From Patescibacteria group bacterium (lineage in GTDB: Bacteria; Patescibacteriota; Microgenomatia; UBA12405): a DNA stretch of 64,000 nt. Numbering within the stretch: the first letter of the stretch is position 1; every line of letters begins with the position of its first letter. The position numbers were made by a program, and so were the translations under genes. Location of the stretch: NCBI GenBank assembly GCA_018902845.1, contig JAHIPV010000009.1, forward strand, positions 8,950 to 72,949. Direction: 5' to 3'. The notes below the pieces were generated by a model. The model searched no databases. It saw nothing but the letters and a program-made list of their open reading frames with translations, and was not told the origin of the DNA. Shown here piece by piece: positions 2,108 to 41,402 of this stretch.

Positions 2108-3334
2108 GTGATGAAAAGGATTTTGATTTCTTGTACTTATTATGAACCAAATATTTCTGGAGTGACTGTATACGCCAGAATTTTGGCTGAAAAGATGGTT
2201 GGTGAAGGCTTTGACATAACCGTATTAAGTTCCAGATTTCAAAAAAACTTGGCAAAACAAAAAACAAAAAATGGAGTGAAAATAAAAAGATCTAGGGTAC
2301 TGTTTAGACTGAGCAAGGGTGTTTTTATGCCATTTTTCTGGCTGGATGCAATAAAAGAAGTTAAAAAAACGGATATTGTCAATTGTCATTTGCCACAAGT
2401 GGAATCTTTTATTTTGGCCATATTGGCAAAAATTTTTAAAAAAAGATTAATAGTAACGCATCATTGTGAATTTGGAATTGATGGGCTTTGGCACAATAAA
2501 ATAATCGGCTTAGTCACCTACCCTTTTCATTTTTTAACTTACTTATTAGCTGACAAAATCGTTTCTTATACAAAAGATTACGCTTATGTCTCAATTTTTT
2601 TGAGATTTTTTAAGAAAAAACTTATTTTTGTTTTACCACCGGCAGTGGTGGGAAAAGAAAATAAATTAAAAATCAAAGAGATCCTTCGGTCGCTAGAGCT
2701 TCCTTGGGATGACGGCGAGAGCGTCATTCTGAGCGGAAGCGAAGAATCCCAAATGAAATGCTTAACTCCCACGGGATCCCTCGACTTCGCTCGGGATGAC
2801 AGTGTCAAAATAATCGGATATGTGGGTAGAATTGGGTGGGAGAAAGGGCTAAATTTTTTGATTATGGCATGTAAAAAAATTAACGAAAAAAGAAAAGTCA
2901 AACTAGTATTGGTAGGGCCATATGAAAATGTGGCCGGAGATGGGAGTTATAAAAAATTAAGAGGATTAATCAAAAAAAATAAAGACTTGGTGGTTTTGCT
3001 TGGAGCAATAGACCATGAGGATTTGGCTAATTTTTATAAAACTTGTGATTGCTTGGTTTTGCCAAGCACTAATAATTTGGAAACTTTTGGGATTGTACAA
3101 ATTGAGGCGATGGTGTCGGGATGCGGTGTAGTGGCGTCTGATTTACCTGGGGTAAGAATGCCGGTTAAATTAACCGGAATGGGAAAAATTGCAAAAATTG
3201 GGGATAGCAATGATCTGGCAAAAAAAATAGAACAAGTTTTGGAGAGTAAGTACAGCAAAAAACAGATTAAAAAAGCTAGGGAGATTTTTAGTTCGGAAAG
3301 ATTTATTAAAGAATATAAAAAGATTTTCTGGTAA
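2108..3334 (+). CDS. Glycosyltransferase family 4 (GT-B fold). The real start is probably the ATG at 2111. Carries an in-frame repeat insertion at 2681-2803.
   Basis: N-terminal Glyco_trans_4-like region and C-terminal Glycos_transf_1 region with motif ETFGIVQIEAMVSGCGVV. The middle segment ELPWDDGESVILSGSEESQMKCLTPTGSLDFARDDS is a translated repeat element. Confidence 0.8.
   Translation: MMKRILISCTYYEPNISGVTVYARILAEKMVGEGFDITVLSSRFQKNLAKQKTKNGVKIKRSRVLFRLSKGVFMPFFWLDAIKEVKKTDIVNCHLPQVESFILAILAKIFKKRLIVTHHCEFGIDGLWHNKIIGLVTYPFHFLTYLLADKIVSYTKDYAYVSIFLRFFKKKLIFVLPPAVVGKENKLKIKEILRSLELPWDDGESVILSGSEESQMKCLTPTGSLDFARDDSVKIIGYVGRIGWEKGLNFLIMACKKINEKRKVKLVLVGPYENVAGDGSYKKLRGLIKKNKDLVVLLGAIDHEDLANFYKTCDCLVLPSTNNLETFGIVQIEAMVSGCGVVASDLPGVRMPVKLTGMGKIAKIGDSNDLAKKIEQVLESKYSKKQIKKAREIFSSERFIKEYKKIFW
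2681..2803. repeat. ~123-bp composite repeat block inserted in frame in the GT4 gene
   Basis: Contains TCCTTCGGTCGC, GTCATTCTGAGCGGAAGCGAAGAATCCC and GGGATCCCTCGACTTCGCTCGGGATGACAG. Confidence 0.85.
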
Positions 3335-3344
3335 AATTGAGTAT

Positions 3345-3551
3345 ATGTATGATTGGAGTACTGACACAACAAGGCTAATAAAGGATAAAGATGCGTGGGA
3401 GAAATGGAAATTAGAGCAAATGATTAATTTTGGTTTAAACGGCAAAAAACTCTCAAAATTAAAATTAAAAAAGTATTGGGATGAATTAGATATAGATCCT
3501 GATAAAAGAAATTATTTAAAGTTTTTGCTATGGGAAGATCCTAATTATTGA
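3345..3551 (+). CDS. Hypothetical small Trp-rich protein
   Basis: 68-aa ORF immediately downstream of the GT4 gene. No recognisable motif. Confidence 0.3.
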   Translation: MYDWSTDTTRLIKDKDAWEKWKLEQMINFGLNGKKLSKLKLKKYWDELDIDPDKRNYLKFLLWEDPNY

Positions 3552-3582
3552 CTTTTGTTAATACTGAGTATATGATATTAAT

Positions 3583-3822
3583 ATGTTGCAATTAATAACA
3601 ATAACACCAAATTGGCAATTTTATATTCCAGGAAATATTAGAAAACAAATAAAATTAAACAGACCAACAAAAGCTAAAATAAGTGTAAAGAATAAAAAAA
3701 TCGTTATTGAACCAATTAAAAGTAAAATATTGACTGGTGCCGGTATGTTTGCCGGCTCTAAGCCAAACAGAAAGATCGATGTTGATAATATCCGGGATTT
3801 TATAGATTATTCGCAATGGTGA
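3583..3822 (+). CDS. AbrB/SpoVT-family antitoxin (VapB-like)
   Basis: 79 aa with a swapped-hairpin-like N-terminus (NWQFYIPGNIRKQIKL). Overlaps the downstream PIN gene by 7 nt. Confidence 0.55.
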   Translation: MLQLITITPNWQFYIPGNIRKQIKLNRPTKAKISVKNKKIVIEPIKSKILTGAGMFAGSKPNRKIDVDNIRDFIDYSQW

Positions 3823-4235
3823 AAATAAAAAAAGTTTTTATTGATACAAATTTTTGGATTCGTTATTTTACTAAAGACAACGAAATTCAATATAAGGCAA
3901 CGGTTGATTTGGTTGAAAAAATTGAGTCTGGTAAGTTTCGTCCTTTTATTTCTGCCATTGTTTTTCTTGAAATTAACTTCGTTCTTTCTCAATTGTACGA
4001 TAAAAATTTAAAGCAAATAAATAAATGCTTTGATTTGATAATGTCATTAAGAAACCTTGTTATTGTAAATAAAACTGATTTTGAAAAAGCTTTAAAATGG
4101 CATAGGAATTTGAAAATTAAACTACCAGATTGCCTAATCGCATCTTGTCTTCCAGATAATTGTGTTTTAGTAAGTTGGGATAAAGATTTTAATAAAATAA
4201 AAGAGATTGATAGTAAAAAACCTAGCGAGTTTTAA
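3816..4235 (+). CDS. vapC: PIN-domain toxin (VapC-like)
   Basis: N-terminal FIDTNFWIRYF motif with acidic residues typical of a PIN domain. 139 aa, translationally coupled to the upstream antitoxin. Confidence 0.7.
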   Translation: MVKIKKVFIDTNFWIRYFTKDNEIQYKATVDLVEKIESGKFRPFISAIVFLEINFVLSQLYDKNLKQINKCFDLIMSLRNLVIVNKTDFEKALKWHRNLKIKLPDCLIASCLPDNCVLVSWDKDFNKIKEIDSKKPSEF

Positions 4236-5029
4236 TTCTTTGTTGCAAATAAAAAGCCTATGTTATTGTGAATTGGGTTTGGGTGAGTTTTGATTTTAAA
4301 ACCATTTTTACTAAAAGTATTGATTAAATCTTTAAGCTTGTTTGTGGGATTAAATAAATGATATTCCATGATAATATTTTCGATTTTTTGATAAGTTTCT
4401 TTGTTTAAATTAAGAAAAATATCAAATTCGGCGCCTTCACAATCACATTTAAGCAAATTACAAGTTTTGATTTTGTTAACTTGAAAATATTTTGATAATG
4501 GCATTGATTTTACTCTCTCTCTCTCTCTCTCTCTCTCGATTCCGACTTCTTGAATTGTCCTCGTGTTTAGAAAGTTGGAACTGTTTATATTCAGAGTTAT
4601 ATTATTATTTGTGGCAATGGCAAGATTGTTTGTAAAAATATTTTTTATTTTATTTTGAGTTATATTTTTTTGTAAAAGTTTACATGATTCAAAGAAAGGT
4701 TCAATTGCATAAATTGTATTAGATTTAGATTTTTTGGCGGCAAAAATTGAAAAATCCCCCACTCCCGCCCCTATGTCAATTATTATCCAGTTTTTTTTAA
4801 TTTTTATTCCAAAAACTTCATAATCTTTTTTTAGATAAGTCTCTGTTAAAACCCACAAATCCATTATGTTTCGCAGTTGGAATTTTGTTTTGTCTTTTAA
4901 AACAATGGTCGTGTTTTTGCTTGTATGAAAAATTTGATTAAAAAATAATTTTGATAGAGAAAAAGTCGGATGTTTAATGTTTGTAAACAAAACAAATAAA
5001 GTTTGAAGATAATAAAATATTTTTTTCAT
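4232..5029 (-). CDS. FkbM-family SAM-dependent methyltransferase. Contains a (CT)12 microsatellite.
   Basis: Motif IIDIGAGVGDFSIFAA and downstream KCDCEGAEFDIF resemble FkbM. The ERERERER run is encoded by (CT)12 at 4513-4537. Confidence 0.7.
   Translation of the reverse strand: MKKIFYYLQTLFVLFTNIKHPTFSLSKLFFNQIFHTSKNTTIVLKDKTKFQLRNIMDLWVLTETYLKKDYEVFGIKIKKNWIIIDIGAGVGDFSIFAAKKSKSNTIYAIEPFFESCKLLQKNITQNKIKNIFTNNLAIATNNNITLNINSSNFLNTRTIQEVGIERERERERVKSMPLSKYFQVNKIKTCNLLKCDCEGAEFDIFLNLNKETYQKIENIIMEYHLFNPTNKLKDLINTFSKNGFKIKTHPNPIHNNIGFLFATKN
4513..4537. repeat. (CT)12 dinucleotide microsatellite inside the FkbM methyltransferase CDS
   Basis: Perfect CT repeat read directly from the sequence. 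It encodes ERERERER on the minus strand. Confidence 0.9.
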
Positions 5030-6936
5030 TTTTTCTTAAAAATTAAAACTTTGGGGTGGTCGTAGACGGTGAAGGCTTCTTCGGATGTGTCGTCGCGGAT
5101 GTAAATACCGGGGTATAGGCATTGGCTATCAATAGTAAACCATTTATTTGTTTTTTCTTTGTAAGGAAAATTGGTGGGGCCGAAATAATAACATTTTTTT
5201 AAAAATGGCAGGTTTATCCCTGGGTAAGAATTAATTTCTATTAATTTTGTAAAACTTAATTTTTCATCAAAGAGGTTTTGGTAAAATTTTGATGTTTGGG
5301 GATATTTGTTTGGTACTGGCGGGATGGAACCCCAAAGACGATTTGATGACATGATCATATAATCGGCATTATTTATAATTGGACTTAATCTTTGCCATTT
5401 TTCTGGTGTGTCTGGATCGTAAAGCGATAGCATTTGACCACTGTAACTGCTGGCAGTTTGTTTTGGTAAGTTTAATGGAAGAGGATCGTCCCAATATTCA
5501 TTTGTAATTAAGGATTCAATGGGAATATTTTTGTAAATCCAGTTTGATGCCTGAACGCGGGAATGAGGGCGGGAATAGATAGATAGAAAAGAAATGCAAA
5601 ATATAAAATGGAAAATAAAAGTAGTAAAAATGAATTTTAAATTAGAGGTTGGCTTGATAGCGAGCAAACATATAAATGGGTAGATTGGTAAAAAATAACG
5701 CATAGTAGTGACAAATTGAGAGCCCTGAAAAAAGAAAAGAAGGATAATCCAAGCCAACAAGAGAAAAACAATAGGATTGTGATTTTTTAAGATTTTGAGT
5801 TTTGTTCCAAAATCAGTGGTTATAAGATTCCTCGACTTCGCTCGGAATGACACGATTGTTTTGAGAGTGAAACTGATAATTTTAAAAAGTGAAATGAAAA
5901 ATAGGATTGATAGAGGTAAACCAATGCCCCAGAAAACAAGATTTTTTAGGGGGAAAAGAATGGGAGTTTTACTTAGCCATTGAACGGCTGGTGGAAACCA
6001 AGCATCTGGATCATTAAACGACTGAAGTGTTTTTAAATTGTCAATAAACTGAGGGTTGGGTTTGATAAGGGAAACAAAAGCGTATGGCTGAACAAGACGA
6101 AAAACAAGAAAAGTAGTTAGCAAAAAGTAAGATCCGAGAAAAATTAACTTGATTAAACGAATGATATTAAAAAAGTTTTTGGTTTTAAAAAAATAAAACA
6201 AAAAGAATAAAGCAATAACTGGAGAAAAAAGAAGAGCAGAAATTTTAGATGCCATGGCAAGACCAAAAAAAATTGGCGAGAGAAGTAAACTCCAGCTCTG
6301 CTGGAGACCTCGAACAAGTCGAGAGATCCCTCGACTACGCTCGGGATGACAGTTTCTTTTTGTTAGCCAGTGAGATAATAGTGTAAAAGTGGCGAAAATA
6401 AAGAAGTTTAAGAAAGTGTCAACGGCAAAAAAATGAGAGAGCTGAATTGGAAAAATACAGGTTGCGTAGAAAAGGCTGGGAAGAAAATATAATAACGGCC
6501 AGGTGTTTTTTGACTTGGGTGAGGTTTTGTTGCGACTGTATAATGGTTGTTTCTTGAAAATTAACTTTGAAATAAGATACAAGGAAAAAATGTTTAGGGA
6601 ATCAAAAAAAGCTGAAAGTGCGCGACCCAGAAAGTGAATTTTACCGTAAGAATCGAGATTTAGTATGGTGGCTAAATATTTTGTCAAAAAAATAGGAAAG
6701 GTGCCATAAACAAAAAACTGATATTCTTTATAGTTGTATGGATTTAGCGGAGAGATATTAGTATTTAGGTATTGTGTAAAGGAAATCGGAAGTTTTATTC
6801 TTTCGGTTACCATGGTCAAAAATCTTTCGTCTGGGTGGAGATGCTGATCGTTGTCCCAATTAATACCGTAAAGACGAAGAGACAAGGCAAAGAGGAAGAT
6901 AAGGATTAAAATTATTTTGTTTTTATGATTTTTCAT
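5026..6936 (-). CDS. GT-C fold membrane glycosyltransferase (PMT/ArnT-like) with two in-frame repeat insertions
   Basis: 636 aa, polytopic, with an HPDERF loop motif after TM1. Repeat-derived segments are HPERSRGISRLVRGLQ (6309-6352) and SFRAKSRN (5827-5854). Confidence 0.55.
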   Translation of the reverse strand: MKNHKNKIILILIFLFALSLRLYGINWDNDQHLHPDERFLTMVTERIKLPISFTQYLNTNISPLNPYNYKEYQFFVYGTFPIFLTKYLATILNLDSYGKIHFLGRALSAFFDSLNIFSLYLISKLIFKKQPLYSRNKTSPKSKNTWPLLYFLPSLFYATCIFPIQLSHFFAVDTFLNFFIFATFTLLSHWLTKRNCHPERSRGISRLVRGLQQSWSLLLSPIFFGLAMASKISALLFSPVIALFFLFYFFKTKNFFNIIRLIKLIFLGSYFLLTTFLVFRLVQPYAFVSLIKPNPQFIDNLKTLQSFNDPDAWFPPAVQWLSKTPILFPLKNLVFWGIGLPLSILFFISLFKIISFTLKTIVSFRAKSRNLITTDFGTKLKILKNHNPIVFLLLAWIILLFFFQGSQFVTTMRYFLPIYPFICLLAIKPTSNLKFIFTTFIFHFIFCISFLSIYSRPHSRVQASNWIYKNIPIESLITNEYWDDPLPLNLPKQTASSYSGQMLSLYDPDTPEKWQRLSPIINNADYMIMSSNRLWGSIPPVPNKYPQTSKFYQNLFDEKLSFTKLIEINSYPGINLPFLKKCYYFGPTNFPYKEKTNKWFTIDSQCLYPGIYIRDDTSEEAFTVYDHPKVLIFKKK

Positions 6937-8660
6937 AAAATTAAGTCTTCTATTTCTTCTTTTGATAAATAATTTTGTTTTTTGTAAATTCTTATAACAG
7001 GATGATCAAATACGGAAAAGGTTTCTTCGGCATTTTCATCTGATAAAAGGAACGGAAAAACTGAAAACTGTTTTAATTTTTCAAATCCCAGTTTACCAGA
7101 AAAAAGAGTTTGGTAATATTTCTGAGAGTATGGAAAAAGGGATCCTTCTCCCGCCACGGCGGGATCAGGATGACGACGGTATTGGTTTTTGAAGATACGG
7201 CGGGATGGTATAAGTATGTAATCACTCTGATGAATCTGTTCTACTAACAGTTTTGGTGAATCAGGATCGCTGTCCAAATTGTAAAAATCAAAATTGTGTA
7301 CGTCTAACTGATGCTGATTAACCGGTACGTTTATAACATTGCCGGCTTCAGAAAGAATTTTTGTATGAGGCAAGAGGTTATTTTTAAGCCAATCAGAGGC
7401 AGTTATGCGAATATCTGGTTTTAAATAAATTGAAAAAAATATAATTCCGGGTAATATTGAAAAAATGATTAATATTTTTGATAAAAATTTGTATTTTTTG
7501 ATCTGTTGAAAAAAAACGATTGATAAAAAAGGAAAAACAAAAAAAATCGGAGACATGAAACGAGACCATTTGGTGTAAAGAAAAGAATTGTAAAAAAAAT
7601 AGACAAGAGCAGGAATGAGAACGACTAGCCAGTTAATTAATGTGTCATCCCGCTTAGCGGGACGTGGTGATCTCGTAGGAAATGTAAAAGATGTGGTTGT
7701 AACTCCGGCGGGATTGCCACGTCGTAAAACTCCTCGCAATGACAGAATTGCTCCAATTATTGCAAATAGCAATACAGGCGGGCCGACGGCGTAGGGGAAA
7801 ATTTTGGTAAATTGAAAAAGAATTGGTGTGGAGTTTAAAAACTGGTTAGTGTAGAACATTTTAGTTTTTCCCATAGCAACAGAGGTTTCATAATTTAAGG
7901 TTGATCTAAAATCAGGTCCGGCAATAAGGTTGAATGGAGAAAAAATTATGAAAAATAGAGTGCTATTGAGTAAAAGAAAAGAAGTGAGAAGAAGTAGGTA
8001 ATTTTTTTTATTTTTTTTAAAAAAAGCAAAAAAAATAGACAAAAGCATTGGACCAAGAAAAAAAAGAGAAGTGATTTTTGAAGCCAAGCCAATACCGGTG
8101 ATAATCGAGGATAAAAATATACTTACCAGAGATTGATTTTGATAAAAATTGAGAGCCAAAAATATGTTTATGGCGAAAACGAAAATAAGCAAGGATTCGG
8201 TGGTACCAAAATGAGCTAATTGTATTAAGGCCGGTGTAAAAATTAAAAATAAAAGCAATAAAACACTTTGTTTAAATGAAAAAAATAATTTTTTGGAAAT
8301 TAAATAAAAAATGAAAACTGAAATTGAAGAAAAAAGAGATGAATAAAACCTCAGCATCAAAACAGAGTTAATAAAATTATTTGGTAGTTTTAATGAATAA
8401 AGAGTGAAAAAAGCCAGATAGAGAGGAAATTGACCATAAGCAAAAAAATGAGGGTTTAAGTCCGTTATTTTTAATTTTGATATAGCAGTGGCCATATTGT
8501 TTTCATCCGGATGAAAAAAATAAGAATCCGCCCAATCAAGTTTATAAAAACGAGTGAGGATAGTAAGAAAAAAGAGAAAAAAGATTAAAAATGTTTTTTT
8601 TGAGAAAAACGCTTCGCTAGATTTTTGGGGCTGTTTTTTAAATAACATAGATAATAGCAA
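6933..8660 (-). CDS. GT-C fold membrane glycosyltransferase (paralog) with an in-frame repeat insertion
   Basis: 575 aa, polytopic, with an FHPDEN loop motif similar to the neighbouring paralog. The segment RRGNPAGVTTTSFTFPTRSPRPAKRDDT is encoded by repeat modules at 7643-7745. Confidence 0.55.
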   Translation of the reverse strand: MLLSMLFKKQPQKSSEAFFSKKTFLIFFLFFLTILTRFYKLDWADSYFFHPDENNMATAISKLKITDLNPHFFAYGQFPLYLAFFTLYSLKLPNNFINSVLMLRFYSSLFSSISVFIFYLISKKLFFSFKQSVLLLLFLIFTPALIQLAHFGTTESLLIFVFAINIFLALNFYQNQSLVSIFLSSIITGIGLASKITSLFFLGPMLLSIFFAFFKKNKKNYLLLLTSFLLLNSTLFFIIFSPFNLIAGPDFRSTLNYETSVAMGKTKMFYTNQFLNSTPILFQFTKIFPYAVGPPVLLFAIIGAILSLRGVLRRGNPAGVTTTSFTFPTRSPRPAKRDDTLINWLVVLIPALVYFFYNSFLYTKWSRFMSPIFFVFPFLSIVFFQQIKKYKFLSKILIIFSILPGIIFFSIYLKPDIRITASDWLKNNLLPHTKILSEAGNVINVPVNQHQLDVHNFDFYNLDSDPDSPKLLVEQIHQSDYILIPSRRIFKNQYRRHPDPAVAGEGSLFPYSQKYYQTLFSGKLGFEKLKQFSVFPFLLSDENAEETFSVFDHPVIRIYKKQNYLSKEEIEDLIL

Positions 8661-9573
8661 TCATCATTAGTCCCCAGGAAAGTACAGAAATCAAAATTGG
8701 TATATCGGTGGCGATTATTTTTTCTGGTCTTTCGCCTTCCTGCATTTCAAAGATTATTTGACCATATCTCATGATACCGATTATGACAGGAAACAAAGTT
8801 ATCATATACCATTTGCGATTAAGGGCTTTTGGGATGTTATTTAAAAGAAATTGATGAATTAATCCATCAAAATGAACCGGTTCTTCAAAAAAAGTGAACA
8901 TAGCGTATGTAATAAGAGTGGCAACGGCAAAAATAGATGAATAAAAATTAAGCAAAGCTTTTGTATAGCCCTGTAAGGCTGGTCTGGTTTTTTTACCGGT
9001 ACCAACCAATTCGCTCCTGCGTTTACCACTGGCGATAAAAAGAGAAAGAAAAATAACCGTAAGCATTAACCAAACCGGAAGATGATAACCAGTGGCCAAT
9101 TCACCAGCATAGACACGAATGATAAAAAATAACGATATGCCCAAAATGTCGAAAAGTGCTTTCTTTTTGAAAACAAATGAGTACATAAATTGAAGACAAA
9201 TAAATAGAAGAGAAGTCACAAAAAATGAGATATTGATTGACAAAGAAATAAAAAGACCCAAGATTGCCAAGAGAAAAGAGACAAAGATAGCTTCGTTTTT
9301 TAATAAAACACCACGAGCCAAGGGGCGGTTACATTTGGTAGGGTGCATTTTATCTTTTTCTATATCTACAATATCGTTAACCAGATAAGACGAAGACGAT
9401 AAAAAAGAAAAAGTGCAAAAAGCCAGAATTGATTTTAACAAAAGACTGGAATCTAGTAGTTGACCGTTGATAATTAAAGCGGCAAAAAGACTGAGATTTT
9501 TTATCCATTGTGTTGGCCTTAAGGCCTCAAAAACGGACAAAAACTTAGAGTTTTTATTATTTTGACCCGACAC
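8638..9573 (-). CDS. UbiA-family prenyl-phosphate phosphoribosyltransferase (decaprenyl-phosphate phosphoribosyltransferase-like)
   Basis: Motif NDIVDIEKDKMHPTKCNRPLARG matches the NDxxDxxxDxxHPxKxxRPxAxG signature of DPPR synthase-type UbiA enzymes. About 8 TM helices. Confidence 0.7.
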   Translation of the reverse strand: MSGQNNKNSKFLSVFEALRPTQWIKNLSLFAALIINGQLLDSSLLLKSILAFCTFSFLSSSSYLVNDIVDIEKDKMHPTKCNRPLARGVLLKNEAIFVSFLLAILGLFISLSINISFFVTSLLFICLQFMYSFVFKKKALFDILGISLFFIIRVYAGELATGYHLPVWLMLTVIFLSLFIASGKRRSELVGTGKKTRPALQGYTKALLNFYSSIFAVATLITYAMFTFFEEPVHFDGLIHQFLLNNIPKALNRKWYMITLFPVIIGIMRYGQIIFEMQEGERPEKIIATDIPILISVLSWGLMMIAIIYVI

Positions 9574-9574
9574 A

Positions 9575-10417
9575 TTACAATAATATCAGAAGTCCTAGCA
9601 AGGAAACAATGGATCCAAATATCATTAAGCCCTTGGTGGGGAAGTCAACACCAGCATCGGGTAGAACTATTCTGGTTGGACTTGGACCTTGGGCTATATA
9701 GACAGGTGTATCGGTTGGTCTTGGAGTGCTGGTTGGCTGTGGAGTTCCTGTGGGGGTATTGGTGGGTGTGTTGGTTGGAGTATTAGTGGGTGTGTTAGTG
9801 GGCGTATTGGTTGGAGTGCTGGTAGGAGCGGTACAGCAAGTAAGGTAAGAAGGGTTGATAATACAAGCATCTTCAAATTGAGACATAGCACAGTAAGAGT
9901 TACCGTCATCAGTATCGATACAAATTAGACCAGATTGACAAGGATTAGACGAATCGTCGCAGGGAGTATAGCCACAGGCATTTGGTTCTGGAGTTGGGGT
10001 GTTGGTTGGAGTATTAGTGGGTGTGTTAGTGGGCGTATTGGTTGGAGTGCTGGTTGGGGCGGTACAACAAGTGATATAGGAAGGGTTGATAATACAAGTG
10101 TCTTCAAATTGAGACATAGCACAGTAAGAGTTGCCATCATCAGCATCGATACAAATTAGACCAGATTGACAAGGATTGGATGAATCATCGCAGGGAGTGT
10201 AACCACAAGCATTTGGCTTTGGAGTTGGAGCGACTACGGTAAAGTTTAAACTACAGGGCAGAGGTGCTTCTTGAGCCTGCGGTCTTTCCGGTACAGTTGG
10301 CTTAACTTCTTCCTGGCTAATTTGTTTTAGCCGTTGAGCAGTCAAAATTGCCACACCGGCCAGAATAATGGTGCTAATCAGGCTAATAATGATGGTTAAT
10401 TTTTTCTTTTTATTCAT
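9575..10417 (-). CDS. Secreted/anchored Cys-rich repeat protein with Thr-Pro linkers. The start is probably the internal Met at 10417.
   Basis: N-terminal TM/signal sequence (MNKKKKLTIIISLISTIILAGV). Two near-identical ~65-aa Cys-rich modules (NACGYTPCDDSSNPCQSGLICID...CC), each followed by TPTNTPTN linkers. Confidence 0.6.
   Translation of the reverse strand: MNKKKKLTIIISLISTIILAGVAILTAQRLKQISQEEVKPTVPERPQAQEAPLPCSLNFTVVAPTPKPNACGYTPCDDSSNPCQSGLICIDADDGNSYCAMSQFEDTCIINPSYITCCTAPTSTPTNTPTNTPTNTPTNTPTPEPNACGYTPCDDSSNPCQSGLICIDTDDGNSYCAMSQFEDACIINPSYLTCCTAPTSTPTNTPTNTPTNTPTNTPTNTPTGTPQPTSTPRPTDTPVYIAQGPSPTRIVLPDAGVDFPTKGLMIFGSIVSLLGLLILL
9735..10225. repeat. Two tandem ~240-bp near-identical repeats encoding the Cys-rich module plus TPTN linker
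   Basis: Long identical stretches, e.g. GGTTGATAATACAAG..TCTTCAAATTGAGACATAGCACAGTAAGAGTT.. appears twice. Confidence 0.85.
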
Positions 10418-10419
10418 AA

Positions 10420-32584: not shown

Positions 32585-33835
32585 TTGGACATTGATATGA
32601 CTAAAAAATCCGATGAGTTTTTAAATTTTGCCGATATTTTAAACAACAAAGAAACTGATGAATTGTTAAGAAAAATTAAGCTTGGTCGCAAAGATGATTC
32701 TGCTAGTAAGAAAAAAATAAAAATTAAAGATTTATGCAGAATGAGGGATTATAGATTACAGGCGCTGGTGAATTGGGTTAAGTTGTTTGGTAAAAAGGGG
32801 TATTGGGATTATAAGTGGTTGCTGAGATATGGATGGGAATGGATAAGACCAAAGTGGATAAACAAAAATGGTAGAGAAATTTCTTGGCGATTGATATTGT
32901 TTCCAAATTCAGAGGTCAGGAGATTCCTCCACTTCGGTCGGAATGACAAGATTAATAAATTTTCTCGGATTTTTGATTTAAGGGATATTGGGAGGGTTAG
33001 GAAAGAAGTACTAAAATTGGGTAAATTTGATCCTCTGTGGTTTGCCAGAATTTTTGAGCCAGAAACTAAGGGAATCAGAGCTTGGGAATATGGAATGTTG
33101 TTAAATTATTTCAAAAAGAAAAACAAAAAGATATTAGATATCGGTAGTGGCGGAAGTTTACTGCCTGATTTTTTGGCTAGTAGCGGGGCGAAGGTGACCA
33201 GTATTGATATTGAGAAACCAATGGAAAAAAGACCCGTCTTTGCCAAAGGCTACGACGAGGCAAAGGAAAAAAAACTGGCGAAGGTGGAGTTTGTGGTTGG
33301 GGATATGACGAAATTACCATTTAAAAAAAATAGTTTTGATGCAGTAATTTGCATTTCGGCTATCGAACATTTGGACACAAAAATGGAAGGTGGTTTTTAT
33401 TCCAAAAAAGAATATTGGAATAGGACAATAAGAGCATTGAGAGAAATGGCGAGAGTGACTAAAAAAAATGGGTTGTTTTATTTGACAACTGATTTTTATT
33501 TAAAAAGACAGAAGACGGACAATTGGAGTGATTTAAATAAATTGATGAATAAAGATGATTTTGATTACGACGGGATCCTTCTCCGCCAACTGGCGGATCA
33601 GGATGACGGTGTGAAAAGACAGGGTGACGGTGTGAAAAGACAGGGTGACGGTGTGAAAATTAGAGGGGCGTATGAGTGGAAGAGATTAAAAATGTTTTTG
33701 AGTGAATTAAATAAAGCAGAGTTAAAAATTAAGACAGATGTTGATAAATATAAAAAATTATTAATGAAAGATAAAAATAGATCGAATTATAGAGGCAGGT
33801 ATTTTACTACCGTAGCTTTTGTTGGCCTAGGATGA
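32585..33835 (+). CDS. Class I SAM-dependent methyltransferase with in-frame repeat insertions
   Basis: ILDIGSGGSLLPDFLA motif I and a VVGDMTKLPF..FDAVICISAIEHL segment. Inserted segments are EVRRFLHFGRNDK (32912-32950) and DGILLRQLADQDDGVKRQGDGVKRQGDGVK (33568-33668). Confidence 0.65.
   Translation: MDIDMTKKSDEFLNFADILNNKETDELLRKIKLGRKDDSASKKKIKIKDLCRMRDYRLQALVNWVKLFGKKGYWDYKWLLRYGWEWIRPKWINKNGREISWRLILFPNSEVRRFLHFGRNDKINKFSRIFDLRDIGRVRKEVLKLGKFDPLWFARIFEPETKGIRAWEYGMLLNYFKKKNKKILDIGSGGSLLPDFLASSGAKVTSIDIEKPMEKRPVFAKGYDEAKEKKLAKVEFVVGDMTKLPFKKNSFDAVICISAIEHLDTKMEGGFYSKKEYWNRTIRALREMARVTKKNGLFYLTTDFYLKRQKTDNWSDLNKLMNKDDFDYDGILLRQLADQDDGVKRQGDGVKRQGDGVKIRGAYEWKRLKMFLSELNKAELKIKTDVDKYKKLLMKDKNRSNYRGRYFTTVAFVGLG
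32912..32950. repeat. 39-bp repeat element, in frame in the methyltransferase (same element as 53611-53650)
   Basis: GAGGTCAGGAGATTCCTCCACTTCGGTCGGAATGACAAG against GAGGTCAGGAGATCCCTCGACTTCGCTCGGGATGACAAG. Confidence 0.85.
33606..33668. repeat. Three 21-bp tandem repeats (GACGGTGTGAAAAGACAGGGT), in frame
   Basis: Read directly from the sequence. Encodes three DGVKRQG heptads. Confidence 0.85.
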
Positions 33836-35020: not shown

Positions 35021-36421
35021 TTACAATGTTTTTAATACTAACTTCATTCTAAACTCTACCTGGGAAGCTTTTTCTAAAGAGGAAACCGGAAGAGTAACTT
35101 GATTGATAAAATCTTTTTCTTCCAAGGTTTCTTTTAATTTAAGTAGATCTAGTCTTGTTTTGGCTCTTCCCGTAAATATAAATTCTTTTTTGGCAGAGTC
35201 AAAGTTAATACCAGTGATCTCTATGTTGTCAAAAGAAGATGCTAAAAATTCTTTTATTGTTTGGATCAAAAGGTTGTTTTGATCCGAAATTTGATTAACA
35301 AGAGATATTTTGTTTTTGTAAAAAGAAAATTTGTCAATACTAGCTGTAACAGAAGAATAGACTGGGTCCAGATTTTCTTTCAGGTTTTTGTTTTTGTTTT
35401 GGCAATTGAAATAAAGAAAAAGCAGAAAAAAACTCAAGAAAGAAACGGAGACGATAAAAAAGAGAGAAAAACTGTTTATAAGCCTATCTTTGGATAAATT
35501 TTTGTATTTTTGAGAAAGTGAATATGGCAAGATGTTAATAGTTTTTGTATCTTCAGGAAGAGTAACGTTTTTTTGGGCTAAAGAAATTAAAACTGCCAGT
35601 TCGGATTCTCTATTACTGGGGATGTTTTTTATTTTATTGGAAAGAAGAATGGTTTCCAGATTTAGTTTTTCTTTAATTTCTTTTAGAAGTGAATCAGAAC
35701 ACTTTTTGCCACAGAGATAGATTTTAGGAGGATTTTGTTTCCTTTTTTTTAGGTAAAAATTTTTCATTTCCTGAATAGTGTCCATGAAATGATTGTTTTT
35801 TCCAACCACAGAACAAGCCTTGATACTTGTTTTGCTACCTAAAACCAAAACCGTAGAAATTTCGTCAATTTCGGCAACAAAACTTAGTTTTTGATTTTCT
35901 TTTGGCAAAAGTCGAAAAAGAGAAATCGCGGTGCTTTCAAAGGCTACCGGCTTTAAACCTGCTTTGATAAGAATTTTGGTAAAGGCATTAATTATTTTTT
36001 TGGGAACAGCACTAACAACAATGTTTAGCTTGTTTTCTTTTTTTTTGGTCAACATCCAGTCAAGATACAGTTTTTGATATGAAATAGGCAAAAAAGTATC
36101 TGCCTGAAATTTGATAGCCTGATCAATTTCTGATAGTTCAATATCCGGCAGAGTTAAAGTGTGGACAAAGGCCTTGACTTCCGAAATACCAACAATAACG
36201 GAGGCATCGTCAATTTTTAGTTGGGACTTAATTTGTTCCAAAACAGAAAGAAGCTGAACGCTATCTTTTATTTGACCATTTTGGATGGTTTGTTCGGATA
36301 AGGGAAATTCGTAAAAAAGCTCCAGACTGTCCCCTCTTTTGTTTAATTTGGCAACTTTTATGTTTTGATCCGTAAAAAGAAAGGCTAAATATCTTTTTTG
36401 GGCTCCCCTAAATGCATCCAT
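35021..36421 (-). CDS. pilM: Type IV pilus assembly protein PilM fused to a PilN-like C-terminal segment
   Basis: An actin-like ATPase-fold N-terminal ~300 aa is followed by a TM helix and a ~130-aa periplasmic tail. Confidence 0.65.
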   Translation of the reverse strand: MDAFRGAQKRYLAFLFTDQNIKVAKLNKRGDSLELFYEFPLSEQTIQNGQIKDSVQLLSVLEQIKSQLKIDDASVIVGISEVKAFVHTLTLPDIELSEIDQAIKFQADTFLPISYQKLYLDWMLTKKKENKLNIVVSAVPKKIINAFTKILIKAGLKPVAFESTAISLFRLLPKENQKLSFVAEIDEISTVLVLGSKTSIKACSVVGKNNHFMDTIQEMKNFYLKKRKQNPPKIYLCGKKCSDSLLKEIKEKLNLETILLSNKIKNIPSNRESELAVLISLAQKNVTLPEDTKTINILPYSLSQKYKNLSKDRLINSFSLFFIVSVSFLSFFLLFLYFNCQNKNKNLKENLDPVYSSVTASIDKFSFYKNKISLVNQISDQNNLLIQTIKEFLASSFDNIEITGINFDSAKKEFIFTGRAKTRLDLLKLKETLEEKDFINQVTLPVSSLEKASQVEFRMKLVLKTL

Positions 36422-36446
36422 GGTAGATAAATCTTAACACGCGCAA

Positions 36447-36830
36447 CTAGTTTAGTTTTTTAAAGTCTTTGTCAAAGGAGAAAACTTCGGCTTGGTTAGT
36501 CTGGGCGCAGACAAAAAGATATGCATCTACTAAATCAATATTTTTGTTTTGATAAATAACCGTAGCTTGTTTTAACTCTTCTTTGTTATTAATTACCAAA
36601 AAATTCATACTCAAAATGATTTTTAGATGAGTAACAACATCCTTTTTGTTTCTTTTGTAAACACTTTTTAATACGTAAGCGAATTCAAAAAGAATTTGTG
36701 GAATTGTAAATAATTTACAATTATTTTTTTGGGCTTGCAAAAAATATTTTCGGGCTAAATTGGATTGTCTTGTATTGTCGTTTAAAAAATATCTTAAAAA
36801 AACGTTAGTATCCACGTATAGCTTTTTCAT
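36447..36830 (-). CDS. vapC: PIN-domain toxin (VapC-like), paralog of 3816-4235
   Basis: MKKLYVDTNVFLRYF N-terminus; 127 aa. Confidence 0.7.
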   Translation of the reverse strand: MKKLYVDTNVFLRYFLNDNTRQSNLARKYFLQAQKNNCKLFTIPQILFEFAYVLKSVYKRNKKDVVTHLKIILSMNFLVINNKEELKQATVIYQNKNIDLVDAYLFVCAQTNQAEVFSFDKDFKKLN

Positions 36831-37102
36831 TTTTGCTTATTGGAAAATTTCTTTAAAACATAGTTTTGAGCGGCCGTTTCTTCGATTTTGATTACCTGAT
36901 CTGTAGATTTGTTTTTTATTGCTAAACCGGATAAAGATCCCTGCATGTCTAATAAATTTGGAATTGGCTGAATAATAATCTTTCCATCAAGAATTGTCAT
37001 AAAAAAATTCGATGGAATTTTTATGCCTAATTTTTTCCTGATTTTGGCTGGAATACTGATTTGTCCTTGCCTGGTAATTCTGCCTGTACTTACTGCGATC
37101 AT
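36827..37102 (-). CDS. AbrB/SpoVT-family antitoxin
   Basis: The GRITRQGQISIPAKIRKKLGI segment is a swapped-hairpin motif. Overlaps the PIN gene by 4 nt. Confidence 0.6.
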   Translation of the reverse strand: MIAVSTGRITRQGQISIPAKIRKKLGIKIPSNFFMTILDGKIIIQPIPNLLDMQGSLSGLAIKNKSTDQVIKIEETAAQNYVLKKFSNKQK

Positions 37103-37148
37103 GTAATGAGTTTACATAAATTTAATGCGTTTGTCAAGTTGCATTAAA

Positions 37149-37529
37149 TTATCTTTCTTCTATTGGTGAGAATTGGTAGGTGCCGGAGGAGAAGGTAACC
37201 GTAAGACCAACCATGCGAGAACGTTGGTTTTGCTGACAAAATGAATTAATGTCTTTACCTCCTGTTATGTCGCTAACTTGAGTGGTGCAAGAGATATTGT
37301 CTTCATTAATAGTTTCCCCTGCAAAAGTAGGATCGCGAAGACTCCTTAGGGCGGCGTTTTCTAGATGACCCTCGGCTCTATTTAATAAAATCAAGCCTTG
37401 ACTGTATTCGTTGTCAAGGCTTAACGAAGAAAGACTAAAAGCTGAAGTTTGAAGAATCAAGGAGGTAATAATGGCACTAACAAAAACAAGAATAATCATT
37501 GCCTGTCCCGATTGTTTTTTGTATTTCAT
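37149..37529 (-). CDS. Minor pilin/pseudopilin-like protein
   Basis: N-terminal hydrophobic helix following GQAMIILVF. 126 aa, in the pilin gene run. Confidence 0.4.
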   Translation of the reverse strand: MKYKKQSGQAMIILVFVSAIITSLILQTSAFSLSSLSLDNEYSQGLILLNRAEGHLENAALRSLRDPTFAGETINEDNISCTTQVSDITGGKDINSFCQQNQRSRMVGLTVTFSSGTYQFSPIEER

Positions 37530-37990
37530 GGTAAGGTGGTGGCACTTTGAAAGTGATAGGAGTAAGTTCTGCCTGTCAGATCAAAGCTAATTTTAACAGT
37601 AGGGTGATTTGCGGAAGGACCAAAATGAGTAAAGGTAAGATTTTTGACTTGAACCAAGCTGTCGGTGAGTTTAAAAGTTTGGCCATCTTCGGTTTTTTCT
37701 AAGGCATTGTCGTCGTCTAATTGATAAGTAGTGGCGCCGGCGTTGAGAAAAAGATAGTCGTCACTCTCCCCAATAGTTGGGTAATTTACAGAATTGGCTT
37801 TTTTGACTGTTTGGTGAAAATCAAAAAGAATTCTTTGTCCATTAGTGTAAATTTCAGCCCGAGCTAATTGATTAACTCTCTGTATGGTGATTTGAGAGTA
37901 AAAAGAGTAAAGAGCTACCATGATCGTTACTAACAGGGCAGAGTAGATTATCATTTCGATGATGGTAGTACCTTTGTTTTTATAGCTCAT
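37526..37990 (-). CDS. Type IV pilin-like protein
   Basis: Prepilin-like N-terminus KGTTIIEMIIYSALL with Glu at +5. Confidence 0.55.
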   Translation of the reverse strand: MSYKNKGTTIIEMIIYSALLVTIMVALYSFYSQITIQRVNQLARAEIYTNGQRILFDFHQTVKKANSVNYPTIGESDDYLFLNAGATTYQLDDDNALEKTEDGQTFKLTDSLVQVKNLTFTHFGPSANHPTVKISFDLTGRTYSYHFQSATTLP

Positions 37991-39540
37991 GGTGAATAGT
38001 TGACTGAAAAATCATAAAGAATGGGGGTGTTTTGGCCATCAATACTTTTTAAAAATGCCTTATATCTAAAATAGCGACCAATATTGGCACCTAAATAAAT
38101 CCCCTGCCCCTCTGAATCAGTATAAAGATCGTCGGAAAGATCAGTGCCGGCAGGACCATGATAAAGCCATGGACCATCTGCGTTTTCAGAGATAGCCGTT
38201 TGGAAACCGATCAAGGTATTTGGAAATGTTTGGCCAGAAAAACTGATTCTATTAAAAGCAGAAGATTGATTGGTATCCAAAACTGAAGAAATTAAGGTGC
38301 CTTCTGTAAAAAATCCTCCAACCCCGCCGGTTAAATCCATGGCATCAACATAAAAAATAAGAGTTGGGTCTGAATGATCCATTATTTTGGAAAAATATAT
38401 GGCTTCTAAATTATTTTCATAATCTTCCCCTATTTGTTCGTAATCTAAGCTGATTTCTGTCCAAGTTACAGGGGGTATAGTGATAGTCCTCTCGTCCCAT
38501 TGGCCATAAACAGCCGTAACATCTATTTCAATTTCATCTGGAGTGGGATTATAGGCATAAAAATGAAGATTGCGAAAACCGATGGTACAGATCTCATCAT
38601 AATTAAAAATTTTTACCCACGATCGCCATGAACCGGAACTGGGGGAATAAAGTTGGATTTTCATGGAATAACTTGATTCATTGTAAGTAAAATCGGCGGA
38701 GTTGGTGGATATAACACCATTAGAAAAAAATGTTAAAAATTTACACAAAAGCCATTCCCAAAAACCAAGTCCGCTACAATTGGTGCGCCAACCGTTTTGT
38801 AATTGGTCATCATAGATAAGAGATTCAGGTGAACCTCCCTGGCAACCTCCAAGAAGTTCTATTTCCCCGTTATTTATTGTGGGATCAGTGATTTTTACCA
38901 GATCCATTTGACCACCTTCGAAATCGGAAACCGTGCTTTGCTGCCAGGATAAATTATCGTAATAGCGAGTTAAATATTTACTTTGGGTAATTTGACTCGG
39001 ATGTAAACCTGTCCACGAACAGGTGGCTGCTATTTTTTTTGTTGACAAATCAAGGGTTCCGGAAGAATCAACAATGTCACCATTTTGATTGCGATAAACA
39101 GGACTAATGTCTATATAACGGGTAAAATTATCGACAAGCTCCCCGCTGGTAGTAGAGACAAGAGATAAAATTCCACCATCTTCATTAATAATGTAACGAC
39201 CGTTATTTAACAAATTCCAGTCAGCGTGTTGAATATTTTTTGTTTTTTCTAAATATTCAAGATTTAGAGCCGTGGCTTTGGTTTTTTCTTTACCAATCTC
39301 GGCAGTTTCTTGAGAGACAAAAAATAGTCTGGTGACGGCAAAAATAATTGTTGATAAAACTCCTATACATACAAGTATTTCTACTATTGAAAAAGCAAAT
39401 TGCTTGTCATTGCGAGGTAGTCTTTTAGTTCGTTTCAGAAATCCGCCTTTGGCGGATACTTCGCATTCGCGAGAGATCCCTCGACTTCGCTCGGGATGAC
39501 AGAATGGTTTGCTCGGGATGACACTAGTTTTATTTTTCAT
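37987..39540 (-). CDS. Large pilin-like protein whose leader region is encoded by repeat elements
   Basis: FAFSIVEILVCIGVL is a prepilin-like helix. The preceding ~45 aa (HPERSRGISRECEVSAKGGF...) are a translation of repeat modules at 39406-39525. Confidence 0.5.
   Translation of the reverse strand: MKNKTSVIPSKPFCHPERSRGISRECEVSAKGGFLKRTKRLPRNDKQFAFSIVEILVCIGVLSTIIFAVTRLFFVSQETAEIGKEKTKATALNLEYLEKTKNIQHADWNLLNNGRYIINEDGGILSLVSTTSGELVDNFTRYIDISPVYRNQNGDIVDSSGTLDLSTKKIAATCSWTGLHPSQITQSKYLTRYYDNLSWQQSTVSDFEGGQMDLVKITDPTINNGEIELLGGCQGGSPESLIYDDQLQNGWRTNCSGLGFWEWLLCKFLTFFSNGVISTNSADFTYNESSYSMKIQLYSPSSGSWRSWVKIFNYDEICTIGFRNLHFYAYNPTPDEIEIDVTAVYGQWDERTITIPPVTWTEISLDYEQIGEDYENNLEAIYFSKIMDHSDPTLIFYVDAMDLTGGVGGFFTEGTLISSVLDTNQSSAFNRISFSGQTFPNTLIGFQTAISENADGPWLYHGPAGTDLSDDLYTDSEGQGIYLGANIGRYFRYKAFLKSIDGQNTPILYDFSVNYSP
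39406..39525. repeat. Composite GC-rich repeat block inside the 5-prime end of a pilin-like gene
   Basis: Contains GTCATTGCGAGG, AAATCCGCCTTTGGCGGAT and GAGATCCCTCGACTTCGCTCGGGATGACAG modules. Confidence 0.85.
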
Positions 39541-40001
39541 TCTATATTTACAATTCCTAATTTATTAATTGATATTAATTTACTTTGGCCAGTGGTTATA
39601 TCCCGTAAAGTAAAATTTGACGGAGAAGAGTAATTATTTAAATAACCGCTTACTTTGACAAAGGTGGCTGTTTGGTTTGGTAAATTTATATCGACTATTT
39701 GAAGTGTAGAAGGCAGTGTTTTTTCTTGATTCTCGGGATCTGTGGGGGAAAAAGTTTCCCCCCTAAAAAGAACGTAACGACTGGAATCTAAATAAAGGGC
39801 GGACTGGATGCCATTAATTGTCTGGCTTTTGGCCTGATAAATAGTAGACTTGATTTCTGTAGCAAAAAGCTCCAGTTGGTTTTTTCTTTCTAGATTAGAA
39901 AAAGAAAGAATACTAATACCAAAAAGAACGGCCATAAATGACATGACCAGAACAACTTCAACCATGGTAACTCCTCTGTTTTTATTTATTTTAATTTTCA
40001 T
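39537..40001 (-). CDS. Type IV pilin-like protein
   Basis: RGVTMVEVVLVMSFMAVL is a class III signal sequence with Glu at +5. Confidence 0.6.
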   Translation of the reverse strand: MKIKINKNRGVTMVEVVLVMSFMAVLFGISILSFSNLERKNQLELFATEIKSTIYQAKSQTINGIQSALYLDSSRYVLFRGETFSPTDPENQEKTLPSTLQIVDINLPNQTATFVKVSGYLNNYSSPSNFTLRDITTGQSKLISINKLGIVNIE

Positions 40002-40020
40002 TGGTCATTATGAATTATTG

Positions 40021-40101
40021 CCGTCATCCTGAATTTAATTCAGGATCCTTTCGAGATCAAAACTTCCCTTGGGATCCTTCACTGTGTTCAGGATGACGTT
40101 G
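40021..40101. repeat. GC-rich repeat block
   Basis: CGTCATCCTGAATTTAATTCAGGATCC plus GGGATCCTTCAC..TTCAGGATGACG. Confidence 0.8.
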
Positions 40102-40111
40102 TAATTTTGTT

Positions 40112-41326
40112 TTAGTTGGGTTGCAGTTTGCCAATAAGGCTATAAATTGGCGAAATAAATGTTAGAACCATAAAGCCAACGGCAATGCCAACAATAATCA
40201 TCAAAATAGGTTCGAGAAGAGTGATGAAATTCTTTAAGGAATTTTCTACTTCCTCCTGATAAAAAGTAGCAGTGTCTAGCAAAGTTTTTTCTAGGGTTCC
40301 GGTTTTTTCTCCAACGGCAACCATTTGGGTCATTAATGAAGGAAAAATTTTTGCCCGCAAAAAAACTTCGGTGAGAGAAGTTCCTTGTGAAATTTCTTTG
40401 GCAAATTGGTCGGCTAGTTTTTTTTTGCCAGGAAGAATCAAGGACTGACAAGCAATTTCCAGTGATTCCCCTATAGAAACGCCCCCTTTAAGCAGGGCAG
40501 AAAGGCTTTGGTTAAAACGAGTTAGGTTGTAATGAAGCAGAATATCCTTAAGGACGGGCAACTTGCTGGTTATCAAATAGATTAATCTTCCTCCTTTTTT
40601 GCTTCTGAAAAAAAGTGTTAGAAGAAATATTAATACAGGAACAGAAAGAAGAACAGCGAGACTGTTTTTTTGCATAAAAAGGCTGATGTTTAATAAAAGC
40701 TTAGTTAAAGGAGGAAGCTCTACATTAAGATTAGTAAAAACCTTGCCAAGTCGGGGAAGAACAAAAGTTAGCATGAGCAGACCAATGGCAAGCATAAGGC
40801 TGATAATTATGGCCGGATAAAGAAGAGAGCCTATAACTTTTTTGCGTAAATCTTCTTCCCTTTTGAATTGAATGGATAAATGGTTAAAAGACTGGTCTAA
40901 TGTCCCAGATATTTCACCTGTTTTAACCATGGCAAGAAATATATCGTCAAAAAACTTTGGATATTTTCCGAAACTGGAATGAAGGGAAGAACCTTTTCTG
41001 ATAGAAAAACTTATATCTTGAAGTACTTTTTTGACAGTTTTGTTTTCTGTACCCTTGATTAAAAGATTGACCGATTCTTCCAAAGGTAGGCCGGCATTCA
41101 TCATGGTGGAAAGATAGCGACAAATAGAGATTTTTTCTTTAACAGGAAATTTACCCGAAATTTTTATGTCTGCTGACAGAGAGCCTTCTTTTTGTTCTTT
41201 TAAAACAAGGACCTGATAACCTTTGTCCTTGAGGAGGGACTCGGCTTCTTTTTCCGATGAAGCATTGATGATATCGGCGATCAATTTTCCTTTTTTGTCA
41301 GTGGCTTTGTACTTAAAAAGGGGCAT
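40112..41326 (-). CDS. pilC: Type IV pilus assembly platform protein PilC (GspF family). The start is probably the internal Met at 41326.
   Basis: MPLFKYKATDKKGK N-terminus, two T2SSF-like repeats and three TM helices. The track ORF extends 25 codons further upstream. Confidence 0.85.
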   Translation of the reverse strand: MPLFKYKATDKKGKLIADIINASSEKEAESLLKDKGYQVLVLKEQKEGSLSADIKISGKFPVKEKISICRYLSTMMNAGLPLEESVNLLIKGTENKTVKKVLQDISFSIRKGSSLHSSFGKYPKFFDDIFLAMVKTGEISGTLDQSFNHLSIQFKREEDLRKKVIGSLLYPAIIISLMLAIGLLMLTFVLPRLGKVFTNLNVELPPLTKLLLNISLFMQKNSLAVLLSVPVLIFLLTLFFRSKKGGRLIYLITSKLPVLKDILLHYNLTRFNQSLSALLKGGVSIGESLEIACQSLILPGKKKLADQFAKEISQGTSLTEVFLRAKIFPSLMTQMVAVGEKTGTLEKTLLDTATFYQEEVENSLKNFITLLEPILMIIVGIAVGFMVLTFISPIYSLIGKLQPN

Positions 41327-41362
41327 TAAATAAGAATAGCATGGGAATAAGTTTTTTGGGTG

Positions 41363-41391: not shown

Positions 41392-41402
41392 TGTACAACA
41401 AA

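Follow-up and report, generated by a model that had tools for sequence, protein, structure and literature searches.

A GA dinucleotide tract inside an FkbM-family methyltransferase gene of a Patescibacteria bacterium is a probable phase-variation switch

The stretch of DNA analysed here (64,000 nt, hereafter the window; positions 8,950 to 72,949 of the forward strand of contig JAHIPV010000009.1, assembly GCA_018902845.1) derives from an uncultivated Patescibacteria group bacterium and carries, close to its start, a perfect dinucleotide repeat within the coding sequence of a predicted methyltransferase, the last gene of a minus-strand operon. An earlier note, made from the letters alone, had described this repeat as a CT microsatellite lying in an FkbM methyltransferase gene of a glycosylation locus and had proposed it as a candidate phase-variation switch. 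Both the microsatellite and the identity of its host gene were confirmed. Throughout, ON designates tract lengths that keep the open reading frame (ORF) intact and OFF those that shift it; positions are those of the window unless a contig is named. The features of the gene are:

4232..5029, minus strand: FkbM-family S-adenosylmethionine (SAM)-dependent methyltransferase, 265 aa, last gene of the operon (PF05050, TIGR01444, AlphaFold (AF2) fold)
4751..4777, minus strand: SAM-binding motif DIGAGVGDF, residues 85-93, 5' of the tract and kept in OFF products
4513..4537, minus strand: dinucleotide repeat, the proposed slippage-prone switch, (GA)12G on the coding strand and (CT)12.5 on the plus strand
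Either side of the GA tract: unique flanks, …GGAATC and TAAAATCAATGCC…
4510..4512, minus strand: TAA stop directly after the tract, in the OFF frame of the 27-nt (25+2) and 21-nt (25-4) alleles
4502..4504, minus strand: internal ATG (M176), 8 nt 3' of the tract, where proteins P0098 and P0100 begin (MPLSKYF…)
4476..4478, minus strand: TAA stop of the other OFF frame (product ending …SKINAIIKIFSS), seen in the 17-nt and 29-nt alleles, the P0099 and P0003 sequences and the in-silico alleles
4415..4450, minus strand: family-signature motif KCDCEGAEFDIF, residues 194-205, 3' of the tract and lost in every OFF allele, the OFF products ending at residues 171-185

Both family models recognise the ORF well above their cut-offs, i.e., Pfam PF05050 (Methyltransf_21/FkbM) with 52.7 bits against a cut-off of 22.7 and TIGR01444 (fkbM_fam) with 93.5 bits against 37.7. 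Its product is identical to NCBI MBU4264713.1, annotated as an FkbM family methyltransferase of a Patescibacteria group bacterium, and exactly matches P0001. The AF2 model (mean predicted local distance difference test score, pLDDT, 91.9; predicted template modelling score 0.90) has a class I methyltransferase fold. Within an alignment of 38 sequences, D85, I86, G87, G91 and F93 of the SAM-binding motif are invariant, as are K194, D196, C197, E198, G199, E201 and I204 of the signature motif, where the K-x-D-x-E-G-x-E segment is present in the window protein as KCDCEGAE. The residues encoded by the tract fall in an unconserved, length-variable segment of the same alignment, and the lowest-confidence block of the model (residues 161-170, mean pLDDT 58) is a loop that holds most of them. 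As the repeat sits in a variable, low-confidence loop, its peptide is probably tolerated rather than required, and the model places the dipeptides in what is predicted to be a tolerant loop of the enzyme.

On the plus strand the tract reads CTCTCTCTCTCTCTCTCTCTCTCTC (25 nt, 12.5 CT units, 100% pure). Its coding-strand codons are ATC, four times GAG AGA, and GTA, translated as I-ERERERER-V, with the ER dipeptides at residues 165-172 of the 265-aa ORF and KCDCEGAEFDIF starting 22 residues downstream; the earlier note had likewise placed the repeat upstream of a conserved motif. Such a run is exceptional in this sequence: dinucleotide-preserving shuffles of the window predict 0.01 occurrences of a 12-nt CT run, the observed count was reached in 0 of 100 shuffles, every other dinucleotide repeat in the 64 kb has at most four units, and homopolymers are never longer than 9. 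Across the coding sequence of the window GAG is the minor glutamate codon (21%), AGA accounts for 44% of arginine codons, and no second ER repeat exists among 13.6k residues. Given the minor GAG codon and the lack of any other ER repeat in the window, we regard the repeat as a feature of the DNA and not as a selected peptide. We also considered whether the tract might regulate a neighbouring gene, as a promoter or otherwise, and rejected this, since it lies inside the ORF and the next gene, which encodes a PIN toxin, is convergent.

The consequences of a change in length follow from simple frame arithmetic, by which the frame is regained only at every third unit step and all other unit changes truncate the product. 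In-silico alleles with tracts of 13, 19, 25 and 31 nt keep the ORF in frame, while the remaining odd lengths between 15 and 35 nt yield products of 169-187 aa that are devoid of the invariant C-terminal motif; the prediction that gain or loss of a single unit truncates the enzyme is thereby borne out. In OFF alleles gene callers open a separate 90-aa C-terminal ORF at M176, from which the SAM-binding half is absent.

Public assemblies encoding the methyltransferase or its fragments were fetched and aligned, and the tract proved to be of variable length among them:

25 nt, ON, window's lineage: the window, contigs L001, L002, L005 and L006, and four contigs encoding the identical protein
21 nt, OFF (GAG-TAA), window's lineage: contig L009, a 99.87% match with 1 mismatch in 3,722 nt
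17 nt, OFF (…SKINAIIKIFSS, then stop), window's lineage: contig L004, the gene otherwise 0/798 nt different and the flanks 99.07% identical
29 nt, OFF, sister lineage (87% nucleotide identity to the window's): contig L003
27 nt, OFF in the other frame than 29 nt, sister lineage: contig L008

The contigs with the 25-nt tract are 99.96-100% identical to the window, most of them 100%, and contig JAHIMY010000014.1 of GCA_018895715.1 matches the opening 11 kb of the window at 100% identity. A literature search by sample and assembly accession found nothing. Thus, the phase-variation proposal gains support from natural alleles, with an ON state of 25 nt and OFF states of 21 and 17 nt in near-identical contigs and of 27 and 29 nt in a sister lineage. 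All three reading frames occur among these five alleles, and every natural length difference from 25 nt (-8, -4, +2 and +4 nt) shifts the frame. The two sister-lineage contigs have 0 mismatches in 3,987 nt and differ solely by one GA unit. In every pairwise alignment the tract is the only indel, including ca. 3 kb between the two lineages in which 380 substitutions have accumulated (13% divergence). The 17-nt OFF gene is recorded at NCBI as two adjacent genes, MBU1088317/8, and each of three archives (NCBI, ENA and JGI) contributes an OFF allele. Moreover, two contigs end at or beside the repeat: L007 (1..19) ends inside it and is elsewhere 100% identical to the window over 3.3 kb, and L008 (1..51) begins 24 nt upstream of it and is elsewhere 100% identical to its relative, a pattern that would fit breaks in the assembly graph arising from mixed tract lengths within a sample. 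Among the GTDB species representatives, a flank-pattern scan gave 0 matches and a protein-based scan only a 48%-identical ortholog, so that no species representative adds a further allele.

The OFF genes do not have the look of decayed ones. Resetting the tract of the sister-lineage gene to 25 nt restores an intact 265-aa ORF. Its dN/dS relative to the window is 0.23 for the whole and 0.16 for the stretch downstream of the tract, which neither sister-lineage contig reads in frame and which still shows this low value. Secondary lesions were found in none of the OFF alleles. Because the repaired ORF is intact and dN/dS is low, we consider the OFF states recent and the gene to have been kept functional across the lineage split; the whole gene, including the part now out of frame, has thus evolved under purifying selection.

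Of the two outcomes that the earlier note had named as contrary to its proposal, a lack of length polymorphism disagrees with the alleles in public assemblies, and comparison of orthologs speaks against the other, i.e., a tract conserved as an in-frame linker. Among ca. 90 homologs from beyond the two tract-bearing lineages, not one contains a dipeptide repeat with at least three units, and relatives with 57-59% identity read TDKNGRRLQ or NKNKARLQ at its position; the GA tract is therefore not a conserved linker. In another Patescibacteria clade, the syntenic FkbM ortholog contains a second, independent simple sequence repeat (SSR), an (AC)n tract at codons 28-33 (N-THTHT-L), in these states:

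L010 6071..6088: (AC)9, in frame, ON, from UBA1372
L019 3083..3100: (AC)9, in frame, ON, likewise in the ten contigs encoding P0113 (L019-L025)
L011 385..406: (AC)11, frameshifted, OFF, a single contig

The OFF contig is 99.43% identical to L019 over 1,941 nt and the only gap is the 4-nt tract difference; its translation stops after 42 residues, and the product reported by gene callers, P0019, begins at an internal methionine. L010 and L019 have an identical, pure (AC)9 although they are separated by a synonymous divergence (dS) of 0.93, with omega at 0.105. Because two different tracts, at two positions in orthologous genes, each occur in ON and OFF states, switchability of the enzyme itself may be what is selected.

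Several homologs with short N-termini (P0010, P0011, P0015, P0027, P0029, P0030 and P0039; ca. 205-216 aa) were suspected to be further frameshift products. P0015 (L012-L015) and P0027 (L016-L018) are preceded by a complete, unbroken N-terminal ORF, which makes them start-codon miscalls and not frameshifts, and the only true frameshift among the short homologs examined is P0019 of L011. The database entries of P0015 and P0027 both start at the conserved internal methionine of MDLW, a systematic miscall that mimics truncation. Likewise, a split GT-C glycosyltransferase gene in L016 was considered as a second variable gene and rejected, as scaffold N-gaps are the cause.

The earlier note had placed the methyltransferase gene among glycosyltransferases and next to Thr/Pro-rich surface proteins, and its neighbours agree with this description, namely a GT4 glycosyltransferase, a PMT_2-type GT-C enzyme, a UbiA-family enzyme and two Thr/Pro-rich proteins:

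2108..3334, plus strand: GT4 glycosyltransferase (PF00534, E=1e-30), a neighbour conserved in L003, L009, L010 and L019
5026..6936, minus strand: 636-aa protein without a Pfam match, overlapping the methyltransferase start by 4 nt
6933..8660, minus strand: GT-C glycosyltransferase, PMT_2/protein-O-mannosyltransferase-like (PF13231, 32.9 bits, cut-off 26.1)
8638..9573, minus strand: UbiA-family enzyme resembling decaprenyl-phosphate phosphoribosyltransferase (PF01040, E=8e-25)
10420-11946 and 9575-10471, minus strand: two Thr/Pro-rich (TPTNTPTN…), Cys-rich secreted or anchored proteins at the operon head, from their translations

The 636-aa protein and the neighbouring PMT_2 GT-C enzyme are distant paralogs, with tblastn cross-matches at 23-27% identity. 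The UbiA-family enzyme, which scores 197 bits against NF008978, just below the 207-bit cut-off, likely makes a lipid-linked pentose donor, and the two Thr/Pro-rich proteins are candidate substrates for glycosylation. The order of the UbiA gene, the two GT-C genes, FkbM and the opposite-strand GT4 is conserved around orthologs of ca. 48% identity in other Patescibacteria (L010 and L019); given this conservation, we view the methyltransferase as integral to a presumed surface-glycosylation module. Taken together, the operon context (GT-C, UbiA/DPPR-synthase-like, GT4 and Thr/Pro-rich secreted proteins) points to surface glycosylation as the probable function.

Other observations at this locus concern its proteins and its stability. 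The Thr/Pro-rich proteins have a Cys-rich module in common (…EPNACGYTPCDDSSNPCQSGLICID…CCTAPTSTPTNTPTN…), which is tandemly duplicated in the 298-aa member of the pair (231 nt, 91% identical, repeat at 9763..10228), and the C-terminus of the same protein consists of LPDAG followed by a hydrophobic tail, resembling a sortase-type sorting signal. Between the methyltransferase and GT4 genes (3345..4235) lies a VapBC-like insertion of three genes, i.e., a 68-aa ORF, a putative antitoxin of 79 aa and a PIN-domain toxin of 139 aa, the toxin gene being convergent with the methyltransferase gene and overlapping its stop by 4 nt. Both GA-tract lineages carry this insertion, and the syntenic loci L010 and L019 lack it. 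Within the gene of the 636-aa GT-C paralog (5765..6018), identity to L004 (1..150) falls from 99% to 81% within ca. 130 nt, and identity to L003 (1..876) is 72.6% with gaps; the drop suggests a recombination breakpoint, or a mosaic, fast-evolving segment, just upstream of the methyltransferase.

Based on these alleles, we propose that the GA tract is a slippage-driven translational ON/OFF switch, i.e., a contingency locus, for the FkbM methyltransferase, a reading to which we assign a probability of roughly 75%. Slipped-strand mispairing during replication would change the number of GA units; with 25 nt, and presumably also with 19 or 31 nt, the 265-aa enzyme would be made, and unit gains or losses other than multiples of three would shift the frame and bring a stop at residues 169-187. 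The OFF product, deprived of the invariant K-x-D-C-E-G-x-E half of the fold, is expected to be inactive, and OFF cells would then lack a methyl group, presumably on a sugar of a lipid- or protein-linked surface glycan. From the behaviour of established SSR contingency loci we infer, rather than observe, that length changes are reversible and occur at a high rate, and the sugar substrate and the selective agent are likewise inferred. A population would in this manner be split into methylating and non-methylating cells with different surface chemistry, a difference of possible importance for phage receptors or host-cell attachment. As the methyltransferase gene closes its operon and the convergent PIN-toxin gene comes next, polar effects are unlikely and the other operon genes would be unaffected. 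No MutS or MutL domain occurs among the ca. 43 window ORFs scanned for domains.

A number of observations weigh against the proposed switch. Every complete ON allele in the window's lineage is exactly 25 nt long, and many of the ON contigs are 100% identical over kilobases, so that one population has probably been sampled repeatedly. An exact look-up of ten other predicted allele products of this lineage (tracts of 13-35 nt) in a collection of 15 billion proteins found none, the in-frame variants of 19 or 31 nt included, which implies few independent events. In the sister lineage the two contigs are both OFF, as a recent loss of the gene would likewise explain, and the lone (AC)11 OFF contig of the other clade has a coverage of only 2.46x. 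As to function, sequence and fold searches of the PDB returned only generic class I methyltransferases (CbiT, Trm5/TYW2 and RlmCD, at template modelling scores of ca. 0.4-0.5), hence they allow no inference of the substrate.

Some of these points could also be claimed by a different explanation, in which the tract is a non-adaptive mutational hotspot and the OFF alleles are one-way steps towards the loss of a dispensable accessory gene: the sister lineage is known only in its OFF state, in-frame variants of 19 or 31 nt are missing, and homologs outside the two tract-bearing lineages manage without any tract. We nevertheless consider such decay unlikely, given that not a single OFF allele has acquired a secondary lesion, that dN/dS downstream of the tract remains at 0.16 between lineages, and that the tract is perfectly pure in both. 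Slippage is, furthermore, inherently bidirectional, and in another clade the ortholog has gained an unrelated dinucleotide tract and retained it across a dS of 0.93.

It is also conceivable that the true tract is always 25 nt long and that the other lengths are sequencing or assembly artefacts caused by stutter of the polymerase chain reaction (PCR) or by low coverage. Amplified Illumina libraries do show stutter at dinucleotide runs, coverage of one OFF contig from the (AC)n clade is a mere 2.46x, and two contigs break at or beside the GA tract. Typical stutter, however, removes one unit, whereas the variants here differ by -4, -2, +1 and +2 units, and the length of 25 nt was recovered in at least eight contigs from different assemblies and pipelines. 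Given that all tracts (at most 29 nt) are shorter than the final k-mer of the k141-named contigs L003 and L009, k-mer collapse is not expected in these two, and NCBI, ENA and JGI records each supply an OFF allele. An artefact therefore strikes us as quite improbable.

Two further explanations are barely credible: a neutral, low-complexity ER linker that drifts in frame and has no regulatory meaning would suit the variable, low-confidence loop but not the finding that every natural length difference is out of frame and truncates before the invariant catalytic residues, nor the uniform GAG/AGA codons that run against genomic preference; and a rescue of out-of-frame alleles by transcriptional slippage or ribosomal frameshifting, with tract length merely tuning the amount of enzyme, could appeal to the RNA polymerase slippage that repetitive runs (mostly homopolymers) promote in some systems, but in one OFF frame a TAA follows directly after the tract, and no stimulatory element was seen (none was examined).

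The slippage-driven switch accordingly remains our preferred reading of the GA tract. Whether it exemplifies something broader is a more tentative matter: that frame-shifting dinucleotide repeats are a recurrent, selected device by which Patescibacteria, which belong to the candidate phyla radiation (CPR), stochastically switch the methyl decoration of surface glycans, with (GA)n and (AC)n acquired independently, is an idea to which we would give a little less than even odds.

Elsewhere in the window, a 21-nt in-frame tandem repeat (33599..33659; 2.9 copies, 97% identical) encodes DGVKRQG three times near the C-terminus of a 416-aa ORF with a SAM-methyltransferase domain (32585..33835). About 80% of the coding bases of the window (45.6 of 56.8 kb) are on the minus strand, and at third codon positions the plus strand has more G than C whatever the orientation of the gene, the coding-strand skew at these positions being -0.34 for minus-strand and +0.35 for plus-strand genes. 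If this excess of G over C marks the leading strand, most window genes, that of the proposed switch included, would be head-on to replication. A type IV pilus cluster (35021..44456) comprises PilM-like (35021..36421), PilC-like (T2SSF, 40112..41401) and PilB-like (T2SSE, 42762..44456) genes, and between the latter two, on the opposite strand (41391..42834), sits a pair formed by an AbiEii-type toxin (279 aa) and an upstream partner ORF of 203 aa.

SSR contingency loci are textbook knowledge in Neisseria, Haemophilus, Campylobacter and Helicobacter, where the usual explanation is immune or phage pressure in animal hosts. Full-text literature searches found no report of frameshift-type SSR phase variation in Patescibacteria, CPR or Saccharibacteria, the nearest being the PTD repeat of a Gracilibacterium. 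The GA tract would be a known type of locus in a lineage where that type is undocumented, and the support from natural variation is unusually direct for uncultivated organisms. If our reading is true, CPR cells would diversify their surface glycans stochastically, with a bearing on host attachment and on phage escape by episymbionts, and contingency-locus biology would extend to ultrasmall uncultivated episymbionts in which phages, or the bacterial or archaeal host, and not immunity, would act as the selective agent. In practical terms, tract length would then be a marker that could be sized by PCR and followed in existing metagenomic time series without cultivation. Such tracts also split genes and break contigs in metagenome-assembled genomes (e.g., P0098/P0099, L007 and L008), leaving them annotated as fragments or pseudogenes.

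Among known systems, close ones are the CT-dinucleotide genes of Helicobacter pylori (oipA; also sabA, babB and hopZ), in which, as here, a CT/GA repeat lies within the coding sequence. One account of oipA (PMC10564699) describes an intragenic CT repeat whose number of units is changed by slipped-strand mispairing, with an ON/OFF shift of the frame. The products of the H. pylori genes are outer-membrane adhesins, and the tract lies in their 5' signal-peptide region, whereas in our case it is placed mid-gene, at codons 165-172 of a cytoplasmic methyltransferase; and H. pylori is a host-adapted pathogen, whereas the candidate switch described here belongs to an uncultivated Patescibacteria bacterium.

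The capsule and lipooligosaccharide modification genes of Campylobacter jejuni resemble the present case in the kind of target, i.e., an SSR in an enzyme that modifies, or here presumably modifies, a surface glycan. Most C. jejuni tracts are poly-G homopolymers, with many such loci per genome, unlike the dinucleotide tract described here, which is the one such locus in the 64 kb examined. In a study of that species (PMC8437040), hypermutable SSRs switch enzymes that decorate surface glycans and so generate surface diversity within a population.

With rfbT (wbeT) of Vibrio cholerae O1 the likeness is one of consequence and an analogy only, for the window protein scores 20.1 bits against the RfbT family PF05575, below the gathering cut-off of 27.9 bits, and is not a member. 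RfbT methylates the terminal sugar of the O antigen. Its gene is inactivated by assorted mutations and has no dedicated long SSR, in contrast to the long SSR of the gene studied here. These loss-of-function mutations, frameshifts among them, bring about Ogawa/Inaba serotype conversion (PMC3727987).

Nearest in phylogeny is the PTD-repeat surface protein gene of a CPR Gracilibacteria genome, a hypervariable locus that fragmented the assembly and for which a link to interactions at the surface has been drawn (PMC6851277). It consists of an in-frame array of 9-mers with synonymous nucleotide variation and lacks the frameshift ON/OFF logic proposed for the GA tract; what the two have in common is repeat-associated hypervariability in a CPR bacterium.

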